64,000 nt of DNA from Escherichia phage CJY920. Positions 7,424 through 46,037 of this stretch are shown in pieces (position 1 is the first letter of the stretch; each line of letters starts with the position of its first letter). A program made the translations under genes and the position numbers. The notes beneath the pieces were generated by a model that was not told the origin of the DNA, ran no database searches, and worked only from the letters and a program-made list of their open reading frames with translations. Location: sequence record PQ349265.1; one strand, given 5' to 3'.

Positions 7424-7939
7424 ATGCCACATTTCAACGAATGTAGTCATCTGATCGAAGGCGCTGATAAAGCTCAAAATGAATACTGGGATATTCTCGG
7501 TGATGAAAAAGACCCGCTGCAGGTTATGCTTGATATGCAGAAATCTTTACAGGTTCGTTTAGCAAATGACCGCGAATACTGCTATCATCCAGATAAATTA
7601 GAAACTGCCGGTGATGTTGTTTCTTGGATGCGTGAACAAAAAGACTGCATTGACGATGAATTCCGCGAACTTCTGACTTCTCTTGGTGAAATGTCACGTG
7701 GTGAAAAAGATGCATCGGCAGTTTGGAAAAAATGGAAAGCACGTTATATTGAAGCGCAAGAAAAACGCATTGATGAAATGTCCCCAGAAGATCAGCTCGA
7801 AATTAAATTTGAGCTTGTGGATATATTTCATTTCGTATTAAATATGTTTGCTGGCCTTGGAATGAATGCGGAAGAAATCTTTAAACTTTATTATCTGAAA
7901 AACAAACATAATTTTGAACGTCAAGATAATGGATATTAA
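7424..7939 (+). CDS. 56: gp56 dCTPase/dUTPase (dCTP pyrophosphatase), 171 aa
   Basis: MazG-like NTP pyrophosphatase fold; matches T4 gp56 length/sequence from memory. Confidence 0.9.
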   Translation: MPHFNECSHLIEGADKAQNEYWDILGDEKDPLQVMLDMQKSLQVRLANDREYCYHPDKLETAGDVVSWMREQKDCIDDEFRELLTSLGEMSRGEKDASAVWKKWKARYIEAQEKRIDEMSPEDQLEIKFELVDIFHFVLNMFAGLGMNAEEIFKLYYLKNKHNFERQDNGY

Positions 7940-8765
7940 TTTCAAATCTGCTCTTAAAGAAAAGTTCCCGCAATGGGAACTTTTAGATGAGTACTTAAAA
8001 ATTATAGATAAGTATAAGTTAAACACTCACATTAAATCTAAAACAGAAGCCCATCATATACTTCCTAAATGCGCATTTCCTGAGTATAGTGATTTTAAAA
8101 TATATCCTTGGAATAGAGTATATCTCCCAATATATCAACACATATATGTTCACTATCTCTTATGTTCAACTGGAAGATTTGGATTGCTGAATGCATTCCA
8201 GAGAATGACCTCAGTAAATAGCTCGCAATTTAAGAAGCTTTCTGACTTAGAGAAAGACTTTACTATTAAGTTATGGGCTGATAAACGTGAGCAATGGATA
8301 AACCAAGATACTCTTCGCAAAAGAAAATCTTTCATGTATTCCAACTTTGATTTTTGGTATAATGACTGGATTTCAAGGGATATGCCTCGTTACCGAAGAT
8401 ATTGGGGAATTTTAGTTGAAGAAAATAATCCAGAAATTTTAGGTACTCACAAAAATTGCCTAATAGCTGTAGTAAAAGATTTTTGCATAAGGTATTCAAA
8501 GGAAAATAATTTATCTATAGAAGAAGTTTTAAATATTCAAAAATTAAAACAATCATCCGAAAAAGCTTTAAAAGCTAAAGGAAAAACTTTAAGCAAAACT
8601 GCACGCAGAAATCAACTTAAATGGAATTATGAAAAAGAGCTTAGAGAATTATGGATTAATAACAACAAACCTAAATATGTCAATTTTAGAAAGTTAGCAG
8701 TTAGTCTAGGTTATCCCGATGAAAACTATATAAATATGATAAAGAGGTTTGAAAATGGTTTATAA
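7929..8765 (+). CDS. freestanding HNH-type homing endonuclease (Mob-like)
   Basis: Motif EAHHILPK ... N ... HIYVHY; overlaps gene 56 stop; occupies the 56-soc intergenic hotspot. Confidence 0.65.
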   Translation: MDINFKSALKEKFPQWELLDEYLKIIDKYKLNTHIKSKTEAHHILPKCAFPEYSDFKIYPWNRVYLPIYQHIYVHYLLCSTGRFGLLNAFQRMTSVNSSQFKKLSDLEKDFTIKLWADKREQWINQDTLRKRKSFMYSNFDFWYNDWISRDMPRYRRYWGILVEENNPEILGTHKNCLIAVVKDFCIRYSKENNLSIEEVLNIQKLKQSSEKALKAKGKTLSKTARRNQLKWNYEKELRELWINNNKPKYVNFRKLAVSLGYPDENYINMIKRFENGL

Positions 8766-9341: not shown

Positions 9342-9679
9342 TGTTTATCTTTAATTGGTTTAAAAATTTCTTTACGGATTTTTTCTCTACAACTCCTGGA
9401 GAAGGTGTAGTTCCTATTTCAAACGACTACCTTCCTTTAACTGTAGTTGAATATGTTTATATGGGAGATGGAACAGTAGAAGCAGTTACTATGACTTATG
9501 AAGAAGCCCAGGAATATTATAAAAATCCTTGGCGTTGGTCAACACCTACATCATCTAATGCGCAGAATACACAGTCTAGTTCTGATTCATATGACACTAA
9601 TGTTCCTGTTCATGTATGGGCGGGCGATTCATGTGGAAGTTCTTGTGATTCTAGTTGTTCATCTACATCTTGTGATTGA
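9341..9679 (+). CDS. hypothetical protein with Cys/Ser-rich C-terminal tail
   Basis: C-terminus [18 protein letters not shown]; stop/start overlap with neighbours. Confidence 0.45.
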
Positions 9680-9687
9680 GGAAAATT

Positions 9688-10173
9688 ATGGAAGCGATTT
9701 TGTTTGAAATGTATATTAGCAGTAATAGTATGTCGTTTGCTAAAGATGTTCCAATTACAGTAGCAGTAATGATTGATAAGGGTTATTGTGACCCAATGTA
9801 TCTCGTAGAAAATTTCGTTTCAATGCCAGTTCCAGAAGATGCTGAAATAAAACTTAAAAAGATTGGTATTATTGAAACTGTACCAAATATTCCGTTTAGA
9901 GCAATTGAAGCATTTACTAAATCCGAATACATTAATGTTAGCGCAGAACAATATAATGATAAGCCTTTATCTTTTTATTCGTACGATTCAGTATATAACT
10001 GGAAAATAGATAAAGGAAATAAATTTATAATTGCAAGTGAAGATGCTTTATCATACTTTATTTCTTCTGTATGGAATAGTTTACATCCAAATTTGCTAAA
10101 AATTCATGAATTTGATGATGCTCCTACTGTTGTTTTAGGTAAAACAAATGAAAGTTCTGAAGAAAATGCTTAA
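9688..10173 (+). CDS. hypothetical protein
   Basis: ATG with GAGGAAAA SD; 162 aa. Confidence 0.45.
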
Positions 10174-10351
10174 ATGGTTCAATAGACCAAACTCAATGTA
10201 CATTGATGACGGTTGGGTTGAACAGGCAAATAAAGAAATGCAGAACGAATCAGAAGAATGGATGAAATCAATGATTAGTGCTGAGAAAGAAAAGAAATTA
10301 GAACGCTCAGCGCTTAAATTGATGAGAGACATCTACGGGGATAAATCATGA
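10166..10351 (+). CDS. hypothetical protein
   Basis: ORF in table frame 10148..10351; start assigned to internal ATG. Confidence 0.3.
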
Positions 10352-10512
10352 ACAGAGATATGACGTTAGAAGAGGCCAAGGCTAAAGCAAATGAAGCATT
10401 GGATTTGCTTCTTAAAATTGGCAGTAAAATGATGGAAGAAAATGAGAAATATATCCAGGAAAACAAAATTCCTGACGGCCCATTAGTAGGCAAGAGGAAA
10501 TCGCATGATTGA
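10348..10512 (+). CDS. hypothetical protein, 54 aa
   Basis: ATG overlapping previous stop (ATGA); not in ORF table. Confidence 0.3.
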
Positions 10513-10974
10513 AGTAGCAAAACATTATTCAATAGAATTTATGTCTAAAGAAGGTAAATCAGTAAATACACTTGATAAAAAGTGCTCATTAATTATTCCT
10601 TTAGCAGAAAATCCGGTATTTTAATTAAAGATATAAAAGAAAGAAAATATCCAGAAAATGTTATTCTAATTATAAAGCATACTGAAGATATTTTGCAGAA
10701 TACTGATTCACCATTTTCTTCTTCTGAAGATTTAACTATTAAAGGCTATAAAAGAGCTCATGAATATGGTCTTTTTGACCTGTTTGAAGACGATAAAGTT
10801 AAATTAGCGAGTCAACCTTTTAAAAGTAAAACATTCATTATTGAAGATATTAAAGATATAAATGCATTCGTTAAGATGGTCTGGGCTCATTTTGATGTTG
10901 GACTACGCTGGAGAATGTCCGAAGAAGAAAGAAAGATTATTGAAGCTAATCGTCAATTTGGTTTTTATCGCTAG
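10505..10974 (+). CDS. hypothetical protein apparently interrupted by a -1 frameshift near 10577-10582
   Basis: 39-codon ATG-initiated ORF (10505..10624) overlaps a 130-codon ORF lacking ATG/SD (10582..10974). Confidence 0.35.
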
Positions 10975-10982
10975 GAATTAAT

Positions 10983-11165
10983 ATGGATTTATTTGAGATG
11001 TTAGAAGATAATCATTCTACGAATATCCAGAATGATTCTAGTGATTATAAGAAAGAGTACCGTATAGTATTACAGAATTATGGAATTGAAGCCCCAGATG
11101 CTCTTCTAGAAGAACTAGCTTCATACCATCTTGACCCTCCGCCCTGGGCTCCCTGGGCAAAATAA
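10983..11165 (+). CDS. hypothetical protein, 60 aa
   Basis: ORF from table. Confidence 0.4.
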   Translation: MDLFEMLEDNHSTNIQNDSSDYKKEYRIVLQNYGIEAPDALLEELASYHLDPPPWAPWAK

Positions 11166-11176
11166 TTCAAAAAGTT

Positions 11177-11208
11177 GTTTACTTTTTCCTTTCTAACGAT
11201 GATATGAT
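11177..11208 (+). promoter_or_regulatory. early promoter
   Basis: gtttactttttcctttctaacgatgatatgat. Confidence 0.45.
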
Positions 11209-11234: not shown

Positions 11235-11859
11235 ATGATTATTAATCCTGCAGATGTTGAACAGTTATCTATAAAAGCTGAAAGTGTCGATTTTCAATAT
11301 GATATGTATAAAAAGGTCTGTGAAAAATTTACTGACTTTGAACAGTTCAGTTCTTTGGCAATGTATGGAAGCCAAAAAGAATGAAGCTCTTCATCGGCAG
11401 TTGAATAAAATCATTAAAAAGCATTTAACTGAATCACCTTATCAGTTATATCGTGGTATATCAAAATCGACAAAAGAGCTCATTAAAGATTTACAAGTTG
11501 GAGAAGTGTTTTCAACGAACAGGGTAGATTCATTTACTACTAGTTTGCACACAGCGTGCGGTTTTTCTTATGTTGAGTATTTCACTGAAATAATATTTCG
11601 CTTAAAAACTGACAAAGCTTTTAATTATTCTGACCATATCAGCGATATTATACTTTCTTCTCCTAACACTGAGTTTAAGTATACATATGAAGATACTGAT
11701 GGATTAGATTCAGAACGTACTGATAACTTAATGATGATTGTGCGTGAACAAGAATGGATGATTCCAATTGGAAAGTATAAAATAACTTCTATTTCAAAAG
11801 AAAAATTACACGATTCATTTGGAACATTTAAAGTGTATGATATTGAGGTAGTTGAATGA
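11235..11859 (+). CDS. modB: ModB ADP-ribosyltransferase, reading frame interrupted by +1 frameshift near 11350-11357
   Basis: R (LYRG), S-x-S and E-x-E (EQEWMIP) ART motifs; N-terminal 41 codons are in a different frame and resemble ModA N-terminus. Confidence 0.6.
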
Positions 11860-19381: not shown

Positions 19382-19644
19382 ATGAAATATGTTAATCGTT
19401 CTATCGCGGCATTAGTATTAGCAGTATATCTTTAGTAGGATGTACTGATGCTGATAATGCAACCAAAGTTTTGTCTTCAAGCGGGTTTACTAATATTGAA
19501 ATCACTGGATACAATTGGTTTGGTTGCTCTGAAAATGATTTCCAACACACTGGATTTCGTGCTATTGGACCTACCGGGCAGAAAGTAGAAGGAACAGTAT
19601 GTTCTGGGCTGTTCTTTAAGGATTCAACTATTCGTTTTAAATAA
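19382..19644 (+). pseudogene. lipoprotein gene interrupted by a frameshift (signal peptide in one frame, lipobox and mature part in -1 frame)
   Basis: MKYVNRSIAALVLAVYL* (19382..19435) then -1 frame ...ISLVGCTDADNATKV... to 19644. Confidence 0.5.
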
Positions 19645-19710: not shown

Positions 19711-21264
19711 GTGATGATTAAGAATGAAATTAAAATTCTGAGCGATATTGAACATATCAAAAAGCGTAGCGGCATGTATATTGGCTCTTCTGCTAATGAA
19801 ATGCATGAGCGCTTTCTGTTTGGTAAATGGGAAAGTGTTCAGTATGTACCTGGTCTTGTTAAGCTTATTGATGAAATTATCGATAACTCAGTAGATGAAG
19901 GTATTCGTACTAAGTTTAAATTCGCAAATAAAATTAGTGTTACTATTAAAAACAATCAAGTAACAGTTGAAGATAACGGTCGCGGTATTCCACAGGCGAT
20001 GGTTAAAACACCTACTGGTGAAGAAATTCCTGGTCCTGTTGCTGCATGGACTATTCCAAAAGCAGGTGGTAACTTTGGTGATGATAAAGAACGCGTCACT
20101 GGCGGTATGAATGGTGTTGGTTCTAGTTTGACAAACATTTTTTCTGTGATGTTTGTCGGTGAAACTGGTGATGGTCAAAATAATATTGTAGTTCGTTGTT
20201 CAAATGGCATGGAAAATAAATCATGGGAAACTATTCCAGGAAAATGGAAAGGAACTCGTGTTACTTTCATTCCTGATTTTATGTCATTTGAAACTAATGA
20301 GCTGTCCCAAGTTTATCTTGACATTACACTAGATCGTCTCCAGACACTTGCAGTAGTTTATCCTGATATTCAATTTACCTTTAATGGTAAAAAGGTTCAG
20401 GGCAATTTTAAGAAATATGCACGCCAATATGATGAGCATGCTATCGTTCAAGAACAAGAAAATTGCTCTATTGCGGTTGGTCGTTCACCGGATGGTTTTC
20501 GTCAATTAACTTATGTGAATAACATTCACACTAAGAATGGTGGCCATCACATTGACTGTGTTATGGATGATATTTGTGAAGACCTTATTCCACAAATCAA
20601 ACGTAAGTTCAAAATTGATGTGACTAAAGCACGCGTTAAAGAATGTTTGACTATCGTTATGTTTGTCCGTGATATGAAAAACATGCGATTTGATTCTCAA
20701 ACTAAAGAGCGTTTGACTTCTCCATTTGGTGAAATCCGTAGTCATATTCAACTTGATGCTAAAAAGATTTCACGTGCTATTCTAAATAATGAAGCAATTC
20801 TAATGCCGATTATTGAAGCTGCTTTGGCTCGTAAATTGGCGGCAGAAAAAGCAGCAGAAACTAAAGCAGCTAAAAAGGCTTCTAAAGCTAAGGTTCATAA
20901 ACATATTAAAGCGAATCTTTGTGGTAAAGATGCTGATACTACTCTTTTCTTGACTGAGGGTGATTCGGCTATCGGATATCTTATTGATGTTCGTGATAAA
21001 GAACTTCACGGTGGTTATCCATTACGTGGTAAAGTTCTCAACAGTTGGGGTATGTCATATGCTGACATACTTAAAAACAAAGAACTGTTTGATATTTGCG
21101 CAATCACTGGATTAGTTCTCGGTGAAAAGGCGTTTGAAGAAAAAGAAGATGGCGAGTGGTTTACTTTCGAACTAAATGGCGATACAATTATCGTAAATGA
21201 AAATGATGAAGTACAGATTAATGGTAAATGGATAACAGTAGGTGAATTACGAAAAAATCTATAA
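19711..21264 (+). CDS. 39: gp39 DNA topoisomerase II large subunit (GyrB-like ATPase)
   Basis: GHKL ATPase motifs (EIIDNSVDE, GLHG-like), Toprim; ends without the C-terminal part encoded by gene 60. Confidence 0.93.
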   Translation: MMIKNEIKILSDIEHIKKRSGMYIGSSANEMHERFLFGKWESVQYVPGLVKLIDEIIDNSVDEGIRTKFKFANKISVTIKNNQVTVEDNGRGIPQAMVKTPTGEEIPGPVAAWTIPKAGGNFGDDKERVTGGMNGVGSSLTNIFSVMFVGETGDGQNNIVVRCSNGMENKSWETIPGKWKGTRVTFIPDFMSFETNELSQVYLDITLDRLQTLAVVYPDIQFTFNGKKVQGNFKKYARQYDEHAIVQEQENCSIAVGRSPDGFRQLTYVNNIHTKNGGHHIDCVMDDICEDLIPQIKRKFKIDVTKARVKECLTIVMFVRDMKNMRFDSQTKERLTSPFGEIRSHIQLDAKKISRAILNNEAILMPIIEAALARKLAAEKAAETKAAKKASKAKVHKHIKANLCGKDADTTLFLTEGDSAIGYLIDVRDKELHGGYPLRGKVLNSWGMSYADILKNKELFDICAITGLVLGEKAFEEKEDGEWFTFELNGDTIIVNENDEVQINGKWITVGELRKNL

Positions 21265-22060
21265 TGACTTAATAGTGCGGGGTAAAACCCGCGTTTCTAA
21301 ATTTAAGGGTGAAATTCATCATATCCTTCCAAGATCAATGGGAGGTTCTGATGATAAAGAAAATTTGGTGAAACTGACTTTTCGTGAACATTTTTTAGCA
21401 CATTTTCTACTATATAAAATTCATCGTAATCGTGAAATGGCATATGCGATGAATAGAATGTTAAACACTGAAAAATATTTACGTTCTAGTAAATTATATG
21501 AAATTGCTAGAATTTACCATCAAAGAGCAGTATCTGAATGGTCAAAAAACTTTATGAAAGATAAAGTTTTAATGAGAAGTATTAAATCGGGTAAATGCGC
21601 CTTATTAATTAAAGGATCATTTAACCCAAAGGAATGGTGCGGTGTTAATAAAGGTGTTAAGCTTCCTGGAATTAAAGGCATGACATGCTTTAAAAATGAA
21701 AAAGGCGAAGTTTTTCGTCTTCATGTTAATGATCCACGCATTAAAGCTGAAAAATTAGTTGGTATTGGAAATACTGTTGCTGCTACTGCAAAAGCAGCTG
21801 AACTTGAAAAAGCGAAACCATGGTATAATAAATCAGCGACAAATCCAGAGGCTGTAAAATTAATACCAAATTTATATGAATGGTACGTCACGAAATATGA
21901 CCCCGATCATTATAAACGAACGGGAGTTGCTAAATGGAAATCAGTTAATAATATAACTGTGAATTCAAAATTATTCGGCCGAGCATTTAATGAATTTAAA
22001 CGCGGTTGGATTCCTGATGAAAAGTTCTATGAGGTGTATAATGAAATTTGTAAAAATTGA
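21242..22060 (+). CDS. mobA: HNH homing endonuclease (MobA-like) inserted between genes 39 and 60
   Basis: HNH motif EIHHILPRSMGGSDDKENLVKLTFREHFLAH; overlaps 39 stop and 60 start. Confidence 0.7.
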   Translation: MNYEKIYNDLIVRGKTRVSKFKGEIHHILPRSMGGSDDKENLVKLTFREHFLAHFLLYKIHRNREMAYAMNRMLNTEKYLRSSKLYEIARIYHQRAVSEWSKNFMKDKVLMRSIKSGKCALLIKGSFNPKEWCGVNKGVKLPGIKGMTCFKNEKGEVFRLHVNDPRIKAEKLVGIGNTVAATAKAAELEKAKPWYNKSATNPEAVKLIPNLYEWYVTKYDPDHYKRTGVAKWKSVNNITVNSKLFGRAFNEFKRGWIPDEKFYEVYNEICKN

Positions 22061-22573
22061 TTCTTCTAGCGTTGATATGAAAAAATATAAATTGCAGAAC
22101 AATGTTCGTCGTTCTATTAAATCCTCTTCAATGAACTATGCGAATGTCGCTATTATGACAGACGCAGATCACGATGGATAGCCTTCGGGCTATCTATAGA
22201 AATACCTCATAATTAAGAGATTATTGGATTAGGTTCTATTTATCCTTCTCTGCTTGGATTTTTTAGTAATTGGCCAGAACTGTTTGAGCAAGGACGAATT
22301 CGCTTTGTCAAAACTCCTGTAATCATCGCTCAGGTTGGTAAAAAACAAGAATGGTTTTATACAGTCGCTGAATATGAGAGTGCTAAAGATGCTCTACCTA
22401 AACATAGTATTCGATACATCAAGGGATTGGGCTCACTTCAGCGGGATGAATATAAAGAAATGATTCAAAACCCTGTGTACGACGTAGTTAAACTTCCTGA
22501 AAATTGGAAAGAACTATTTGAAATGCTCATGGGTAACGACCCTGAACTCCGTAAAGATTGGATGCTAGGATAA
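22041..22573 (+). CDS. 60: gp60 topoisomerase II subunit, translated across a 50-nt bypass (codons 1-46 = 22041..22178, resumes 22229..22573; 160 aa)
   Basis: ANVAIMTDADHDG then UAG; downstream frame LGSIYPSLLGFFSNWPELF... continues the protein; identical layout to T4 gene 60. Confidence 0.9.
22179..22228 (+). other. gene 60 translational bypass (hop) coding gap, 50 nt
   Basis: Take-off GGA 22176-22178, UAG stop, hairpin ggatagccttcgggctatc, landing GGA 22226-22228. Confidence 0.9.
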
Positions 22574-23370
22574 TGAATTATCGTAAAATTTATGATAAAC
22601 TTATCGCTGCGGCTAAAAACCGCAGCACTATTCCTAATTATACTGAAACTCACCATATTTTGCCTAAATCTATGGGCGGGAGTAATGCTAAATCAAATCT
22701 AGTTAAAATGACCCCTAGAGAGCATTTTATCGCCCATTTATTGCTTTATAAAATTCATAAGAACCGTTCTATGCTTATGGCTATTAGAGCTTTTTACATG
22801 GGAGCTAGAAATTCTAGAGATTATGATTGGCTTAAACAAGAATTCTCTAAAGAGCACTCTAGATTTATGAAAGAATGGATTGCTAAAAATGGCAACCCAT
22901 TTAAAGGTAAAAAACATACTAAAGCAACAAGAGAATTAATGTCACATATTGCTTCACAACGTATAGGCGAATTAAATCCATTTTATGGTAAAACTCATAC
23001 GCAAGAAGCAATAGATAAAATAATACAGGCTAACAAGTTATCTTGGGAGAATGGGCGAAAAGCACCTGTAAAAACAAAAGAACACCAGGATAAAATAACT
23101 AAATCAAGAATGGAAACATTTAAAACAAAAGGATTTAAACCATACACTCCTAGGTCAGAAGAAACTAAAGCTAAGACTAGAGAGTTGTATAAATCTAAAT
23201 ATGAAAGAAGGCCTATAAGAATCACAAGTGTAAAAACAGGCGAAACTATTGATTTTAACTATCTTTATGAATTAAGGGAGTATTTAGATATAGGGTCTTC
23301 TAATATATTGAAAGCATTAAATAATCCTAACAGAACCTGCAAAGGTTATAAAATGTGTTGGATGTCCTAA
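22573..23370 (+). CDS. second HNH homing endonuclease with NUMOD3-like repeats, 265 aa
   Basis: ETHHILPKSMGGSNAKSNLVKMTPREHFIAH; repeats NPFKGKKHTKATRELMS / NPFYGKTHTQEAIDKI; ATG overlaps gene 60 stop. Confidence 0.7.
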   Translation: MNYRKIYDKLIAAAKNRSTIPNYTETHHILPKSMGGSNAKSNLVKMTPREHFIAHLLLYKIHKNRSMLMAIRAFYMGARNSRDYDWLKQEFSKEHSRFMKEWIAKNGNPFKGKKHTKATRELMSHIASQRIGELNPFYGKTHTQEAIDKIIQANKLSWENGRKAPVKTKEHQDKITKSRMETFKTKGFKPYTPRSEETKAKTRELYKSKYERRPIRITSVKTGETIDFNYLYELREYLDIGSSNILKALNNPNRTCKGYKMCWMS

Positions 23371-45451: not shown

Positions 45452-45721
45452 ATGGCTAAAAAAGAAATGGTTGAATTTGATGAAGCTATCCATGGCGAAG
45501 ACTTGGCTAAATTTATTAAAGAAGCATCTGATCATAAACTGAAAATTTCCGGTTATAATGAACTGATTAAAGATATTCGAATTCGTGCTAAAGATGAACT
45601 TGGTGTTGATGGTAAGATGTTTAATCGTCTGTTAGCTTTGTATCATAAAGATAACCGTGATGTGTTTGAAGCTGAAACTGAAGAGGTAGTTGAACTTTAT
45701 GACACAGTTTTCTCTAAATGA
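45452..45721 (+). CDS. dsbA: DsbA dsDNA-binding late-transcription protein, 89 aa
   Basis: Position between rnh and 33; length 89 aa. Confidence 0.7.
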   Translation: MAKKEMVEFDEAIHGEDLAKFIKEASDHKLKISGYNELIKDIRIRAKDELGVDGKMFNRLLALYHKDNRDVFEAETEEVVELYDTVFSK

Positions 45722-46037
45722 TATTCGTCCGGTCGATGAGACCGGTCTTTCAGAAAAAGAACTTTCAATTAAGAAAGAAAAGGATGAAATAGCAAAGCTT
45801 CTTGACCGTCAAGAAAATGGATTTATTATTGAAAAAATGGTAGAAGAGTTTGGAATGAGTTATCTTGAAGCTACAACAGCATTCTTAGAAGAAAATTCTA
45901 TTCCTGAAACTCAATTTGCTAAATTTATTCCTTCGGGTATAATTGAAAAAATTCAGTCAGAAGCTATTGACGAAAATCTTTTACGTCCTTCTGTTGTTCG
46001 TTGTGAAAAAACTAATACATTAGATTTTCTACTATGA
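45699..46037 (+). CDS. 33: gp33 late-transcription co-activator, 112 aa
   Basis: Position upstream of 59/32; length 112 aa. Confidence 0.7.
   Translation: MTQFSLNDIRPVDETGLSEKELSIKKEKDEIAKLLDRQENGFIIEKMVEEFGMSYLEATTAFLEENSIPETQFAKFIPSGIIEKIQSEAIDENLLRPSVVRCEKTNTLDFLL

Follow-up and report, generated by a model that had tools for sequence, protein, structure and literature searches.

Are the two overlapping open reading frames (ORFs) at one locus of the window (the whole 64,000-nucleotide stretch of DNA analysed) joined by programmed frameshifting, or are they the pieces of a gene broken by a single-base indel? An earlier note had proposed a -1 frameshift joining them at an AAA-AAG site, and had left programmed frameshifting and a 1-nt indel open as alternatives. 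Its reading of the layout is accurate. A 39-codon ORF with a good SD runs from ATG 10505 to TAA 10622-10624 (AAGAGGA upstream, with 7 nt between GAGG and ATG) and overlaps a 130-codon ORF (10582-10974, ending in TAG 10972-10974) that has neither ATG nor SD, its GTG start at 10582 being a mechanical one. The -1 frame does open at 10579 (AAA 10579-10581), after TGA 10573-10575 and TAA 10576-10578. The zero-frame codons there are GAT (10574-10576), AAA (10577-10579) and AAG (10580-10582), and a -1 slip on AAA-AAG would join the frames, giving a product that we computed as 156 aa. We nevertheless conclude that the split is almost certainly due to an indel and not to programmed frameshifting. The indel half of the alternative holds up, as relatives carry one 471-nt ORF and the window has that ORF minus one A. 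The proposed frameshift at AAA-AAG does not: the split is not conserved, homology switches frame downstream of the motif, the motif occurs in intact relatives, and no stimulator is found. The features of the locus are listed in Table 1.

Table 1. Features of the split modA.3 locus, in window coordinates.
Feature	Position	Strand	Basis
SD-like AGAGGA ahead of the modA.3 start	10493..10498	+	Read from the sequence; relatives are annotated with the same start
modA.3 5' fragment, 39-codon ORF	10505..10624	+	Alignment to C2-3, PP01 and ESh36; phrog_1234 match
Off-frame TGA-TAA stops in the -1 frame	10573..10578	+	Translation of the -1 frame; identical CTTGATAAAAAG in the intact PP01 and ESh36 genes
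AAA-AAG, codons Lys25-Lys26 of ModA.3, the proposed slip site	10577..10582	+	Found in intact relatives
1-nt deletion, true frame junction	10616..10617	+	Alignments to relatives; junction k-mer searches
modA.3 3' fragment, authentic codons 39-156 and stop, now in the -1 frame	10617..10974	+	PF24070, phrog_1234 and alignment

Megablast of positions 10300-11200 matched 537 phage records, nearly all of them Tequatrovirus (T4-like) and 499 at 95-99% identity; the source of the window is evidently a T4-like phage of this genus. On the plus strand the genes run soc, mrh.2, mrh.1, mrh, srh, modA.4, modA.3, modA.2, modB, modA and srd, the same order as in annotated PP01, C2-3 and ESh36. The position of modA.3, with modA.4 and modA.2 on either side and modB and modA downstream, is kept in PP01, C2-3, ESh36, G28 and LYE-01, where the gene is annotated as a single 471-nt CDS encoding 156 aa. 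Among the relatives examined modA.3 is one 471-nt ORF, with the exception of two independently broken records (UAB_60 and e11/2). A tblastn search with the repaired ModA.3 returned 587 records, 545 of which matched at a coverage of at least 80%, and in an evenly spread sample of these matches a single-piece ModA.3 was found in 33 of 34 close records. Against its best relatives the repaired protein shows 98.7% identity.

The protein families tell the same story from both sides of the break. Intact PP01 ModA.3 matches Pfam PF24070 (T4_MRH) at 131 bits over profile positions 1-143, and the 130-codon ORF matches it at 104 bits (cut-off 24.4), with ORF residues 10-121 covering profile positions 35-143. 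Both modA.3 fragments, as well as the intact protein, match phrog_1234 ('Mrh transcription modulator under heat shock'). Both ORFs are halves of modA.3, an Mrh-like early accessory gene of T4-type phages that belongs to family PF24070. The locus has the family profile match and the genomic position of a T4 ModA.3 orthologue and lacks the uninterrupted ORF of about 156 codons; it is a disrupted modA.3 orthologue, whether as a pseudogene or through an error in the sequence. The paralogue Mrh (9676-10173) is intact in the window and resembles ModA.3 only remotely, at 22% identity in a pairwise comparison (E = 0.03). A literature search for 'modA.3' found irrelevant papers only and no functional work, and ModA.3 is without a biochemically defined function.

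Nucleotide alignment traces the break to one missing base. Where relatives read CCGGATATT, the window reads CCGG-TATT, with one A absent at 10616/10617, and the resulting allele at the junction is CCGGTATT. In the wider alignment, relatives have AATCCGGATATTTTAATT and the window has AATCCGG-TATTTTAATT, which is the sole length difference shown in modA.3. The missing base is the A of codon 38 (GAT, Asp), outside any homopolymer and 36 nt downstream of AAA-AAG. Codons 1-37 of the 5' fragment (10505-10615) are the authentic N-terminus, and codons 38-39 (GTA TTT) together with the TAA are out-of-frame triplets made by the deletion.

The family profiles also place the frame switch well past the proposed slip site. 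Residues 3-33 of the 39-aa product align with phrog_1234 profile positions 4-35, so frame-0 homology extends to about 10603. Homology in the -1 frame starts at residue 10-11 of the second ORF (about 10609-10612) by both PF24070 and phrog_1234, with residues 11-130 covering positions 42-165 of the phrog_1234 profile. Together, these two limits put the switch at about 10603-10615, that is, 25-35 nt downstream of AAA-AAG. Because the second ORF matches the profiles only from residue 10-11, its first 11 or so codons (10582-10614) are spurious. The TGA-TAA pair makes the -1 frame seem to open at 10579, and would be irrelevant in an intact gene.

We searched for the deletion allele in other sequences. 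A 40-nt query centred on the deletion junction, which seeds only across the junction itself, had no match in 50,697 phage records, and an intact 41-mer used as a control matched 218 of them. Similarly, exact matching did not find the deletion 27-mer in IMG/VR, GTDB genomes or JGI metagenomes, and its intact counterpart occurs in IMG/VR. Megablast with 121 nt across the site returned 501 records, none at 100% identity (best 99.2%), and the extra base was carried by all 30 of the best matches listed. An exact-protein look-up found neither the 39-aa nor the 130-aa product among the called proteins of the gene-position collection. Among the sequences searched, the two-ORF layout therefore appears to be private to the window.

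If the A of codon 38 is missing from the phage, ribosomes starting at ATG 10505 would read the first 37 codons correctly, add Val-Phe and terminate at TAA 10622. For the last 118 codons, now in the -1 frame, there would be neither a usable start codon nor an RBS, and their translation would not be expected. With a stop after 37 authentic codons and an untranslatable remainder, the locus would be a modA.3 frameshift (null) allele and not a recoded gene. We observed directly that the base is deleted, where it is deleted, and that no other sequence searched shares the deletion; from this we infer that the deletion is present in the phage itself. We put the chance that this would be a genuine loss-of-function mutation in a dispensable gene a little above even. 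This slight lean reflects the facts that the missing base is not in a homopolymer, that no essential gene is hit, and that an 8-nt modA.3 deletion in another phage provides a precedent.

A sequencing or assembly artefact, with modA.3 intact in the phage and the A missing only from the deposited or assembled sequence, is a serious possibility, though we judge it somewhat short of probable. An artefact would be consistent with an allele that is unique among all sequences searched, in an ORF that is otherwise 98.7% identical at the protein level to intact relatives. Furthermore, two more private frame-breaking indels (in modB and gp39.1) and five other private indels occur in about 22 kb, which fits an imperfectly polished consensus. 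Glucosyl-hydroxymethyl-cytosine DNA of T4-type phages degrades nanopore base calling. However, homopolymers are the usual context of indel-type read errors, and the missing base is not in one. Around the locus, private substitutions occur at a normal density of about 3 per 500 nt, so modA.3 does not lie in a generally low-quality stretch. It should also be noted that no essential gene carries a frameshift over the 51 kb aligned to PP01. This last point discriminates only weakly: if some two thirds of the coding sequence is non-essential (a rough estimate from T4 genes), the chance that three random errors spare every essential gene is about 30%.

Independent disruption of modA.3 in two other genomes also speaks against an artefact. 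In Salmonella phage UAB_60 (OL656107.1; 301-770 of the piece compared), modA.3 is 1 nt short at codon 26, where the G of AAAAAG is lost, and in Escherichia phage e11/2 (KJ668714.2, 10345-10815) it has an 8-nt deletion near codon 105. An 8-nt deletion is unlikely to be a read error, so real loss of modA.3 does happen. Since these lesions and the one in the window differ in position and size, they are independent events and not a shared recoding site. Counting the window, at least three deposited T4-like genomes have independent lesions in modA.3, which argues that these phages do not need the gene under the conditions used to propagate them. Stated with the artefact in mind, modA.3 is either dispensable and lost time and again, or a gene that has been mis-sequenced more than once. 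In e11/2, the annotation also gives mrh in two pieces.

We also compared the window with its relatives for indels elsewhere. Across the 51 kb that align to PP01 at 90% identity or above, the only uncompensated frame-breaking indels in conserved genes are those in modA.3, modB and gp39.1. Comparison of the first 25 kb with a four-genome panel revealed 8 private indels, of which 3 are frame-breaking, 1 is in-frame and 4 are intergenic. The modB gene (ADP-ribosyltransferase, 11235-11859) has a 1-nt insertion, an extra T at 11346/11347 that changes CAGTCAG to CAGTTCAG and splits the gene into 11235-11384 and a remainder ending at 11859. In a 121-nt search at this site the best identity of any phage record was 99.2%, and the extra T was absent from all 15 records listed. 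In gp39.1, a small lipoprotein-like ORF (19382-19644), an extra TA at 19425-19428 creates a premature TAG (19433-19435) inside the signal peptide; here the 121-nt search gave a best identity of 97.5% for any phage record, and the 10 records listed all lacked 2 nt there. Between modA.2 and modB, a promoter-like stretch (GTTTAC...TATGAT) contains a private insertion of 2 nt (TT) at 11186-11187. Three of the 8 private indels (modA.3, 11186 and modB) fall within 730 nt, a cluster that is not significant by a rough hand scan statistic (P ~0.17), and around modA.3 and modB private substitutions occur at an unremarkable density.

A length difference was also seen in gp33 (window 45690-46037), which has a long C-terminus (...CEKTNTLDFLL). 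The PP01 protein (22261-22584 of the piece compared) ends in ...CEKLIH, owing to a 1-nt difference at window 46007. This difference is a peculiarity of PP01, and it is PP01, not the window, that looks truncated.

Two variants of a real deletion are together improbable. In the first, background slippage into the -1 frame, on A_AAG (10579-10582) or at some other point of the 46-nt overlap, would make small amounts of a nearly complete ModA.3 in which a stretch of 12 residues is substituted, and the allele would be leaky and not null. In the second, selection acting in the lineage of this phage would have shut an early-gene block, with lesions in modA.3, in the modA.2-modB stretch and in modB, the last of which we take to encode an ADP-ribosyl/RNAylation enzyme. 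The overlap (10579-10624) was inspected for other slip sites. Only U_UUA (10600-10603) and A_AAU (10609-10612) were seen, both weak tetramers and neither canonical. A +1 slip on UUUU (10619-10622) leads to the wrong frame, and transcriptional slippage was rejected because the A-run is only 5 nt, which is too short for it.

Programmed -1 ribosomal frameshifting at U_AAA_AAG (10576-10582), making a functional 156-aa protein from both ORFs, is very improbable. The frame arrangement would permit a -1 slip from AAG to AAA with a 156-aa product, and, given a strong stimulator, no tetramer shifts more readily in E. coli than A_AAG, at up to 5.6% with the IS3 pseudoknot (PMC4066793). However, that value is reached only with the pseudoknot; for Z_ZZN tetramers that lack a stimulator, shifting was measured at about 0.15%, compared with a background of 0.11% (Sharma et al. 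2014, PMC4066793). Rescue of modA.3 by slippage here would be at background level. Instead of the canonical heptamer X_XXZ_ZZN the window has U_AAA_AAG, in which only the A-site tetramer A_AAG is slippery; as a U precedes AAA-AAG, the P-site tRNA-Lys would have to re-pair to UAA. The effective spacing of an SD-like element upstream of a slip site is about 10-14 nt (dnaX). No such element was found at an effective distance from the motif, the nearest AAGG (10551-10554) being 22 nt upstream. Downstream structure was not found either: the 78 nt at 10583-10660 reach an MFE of only -3.6 kcal/mol (z = +1.25), which 181 of 200 shuffled sequences equal or surpass.

Conservation argues against recoding in the same way. 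The two-ORF arrangement is private to this sequence, homologues have a single 471-nt ORF, and the other broken alleles are broken at different positions. AAA-AAG is unchanged in intact relatives (including PP01 and ESh36) and is the synonymous AAA-AAA in e11/2. By profiles and alignment alike, homology does not switch at the slippery site. Because the change of frame relative to the family lies 36 nt past the motif, a slip at AAA-AAG would replace 12 conserved ModA.3 residues with 12 others. The AAA-AAG site thus fails on every testable defining feature of programmed frameshifting, namely heptamer, stimulator, conservation and homology switch. Nor is the motif rare. In this genome of 35% G+C, AAAAAG is common (135 in the window compared to 120 +/- 10 in shuffles). 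The 17,031 codons of long ORFs contain in-frame A_AAG 118 times and AAA_AAG 37 times, and the chance that any 15-codon overlap holds one of these in frame is about 10% for A_AAG and about 3% for AAA_AAG.

It is just as hard to credit that both pieces work on their own, the first as a 39-aa peptide and the second as a 130-aa protein made from GTG 10582 or by re-initiation after TAA 10622. The mechanical ORF list does place a GTG start at 10582 and the 3' fragment keeps most of the T4_MRH domain (profile positions 35-143), but no SD-like sequence precedes this GTG, the -1 frame near the TAA stop has no ATG, GTG or TTG, neither exact protein is on record in the gene-position collection, and members of the family always consist of one polypeptide, which here would be without the N-terminal 35 profile positions.

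These results remove a false candidate for programmed frameshifting, the split being an ordinary 1-nt deletion in a known accessory gene. They also illustrate that a slippery-looking AAA-AAG beside a frame break can be coincidence: here the motif is older than the break and 36 nt distant. For genome annotation, modA.3, modB and gp39.1 should be entered as disrupted genes, or else re-checked against reads.

Bona fide recoding sites look different. The -1 sites of E. coli dnaX and of IS3/IS911-type elements (A_AAA_AAG with an upstream SD and, downstream, a hairpin or pseudoknot) share with the window a zero-frame AAA-AAG and a -1 frame that is open at the slip position. Unlike them, the window motif has U and not A in first place, no SD at the right distance, no downstream structure and no conserved layout. 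A second comparison is available within the window itself, where T4 gene 60 is likewise seen as an ORF interrupted by a stop. Its translational bypass, which we take to be a known, conserved and experimentally established recoding signal, is intact at 22176-22228: take-off GGA (22176-22178), UAG (22179-22181), a CUUCGG hairpin, a 50-nt gap and landing GGA (22226-22228). The modA.3 split shows no such signatures of conservation, whereas gene 60 has its defining pair of GGA codons (take-off and landing, with 50 nt between), its UAG and its hairpin.

Gene 60 has an endonuclease-like ORF on either side. The first (21242-22060) is of the HNH type, is annotated as MobE in e11/2 and has a weak Pfam HNH match. 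The second, a 270-aa ORF (22558-23370) between gene 60 and rIIA.1, has a NUMOD3 motif and no counterpart there in PP01. Upstream of soc, a 283-aa ORF (7914-8765) has a TTG start, an HHILPK motif and no Pfam match. The stretch holding this last ORF does not align with PP01 at 90% identity or above, and the ORF may be a homing-endonuclease-like insertion.

Close parallels to the window allele are the modA.3 genes of UAB_60 and e11/2. As in the window, a small deletion breaks the gene, and in these phages only a short remnant CDS is annotated; the positions and sizes differ, as UAB_60 has lost 1 nt at codon 26, e11/2 has lost 8 nt near codon 105 and the window lacks 1 nt at codon 38. With the intact T4 ModA.3/Mrh-like proteins (PF24070; PHROG 1234), the window copy shares its position, 98.7% identity when repaired and strong profile matches. 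It differs from them in that their 156-aa ORF is uninterrupted, whereas the window copy is broken at codon 38 by the deletion of a single nucleotide.
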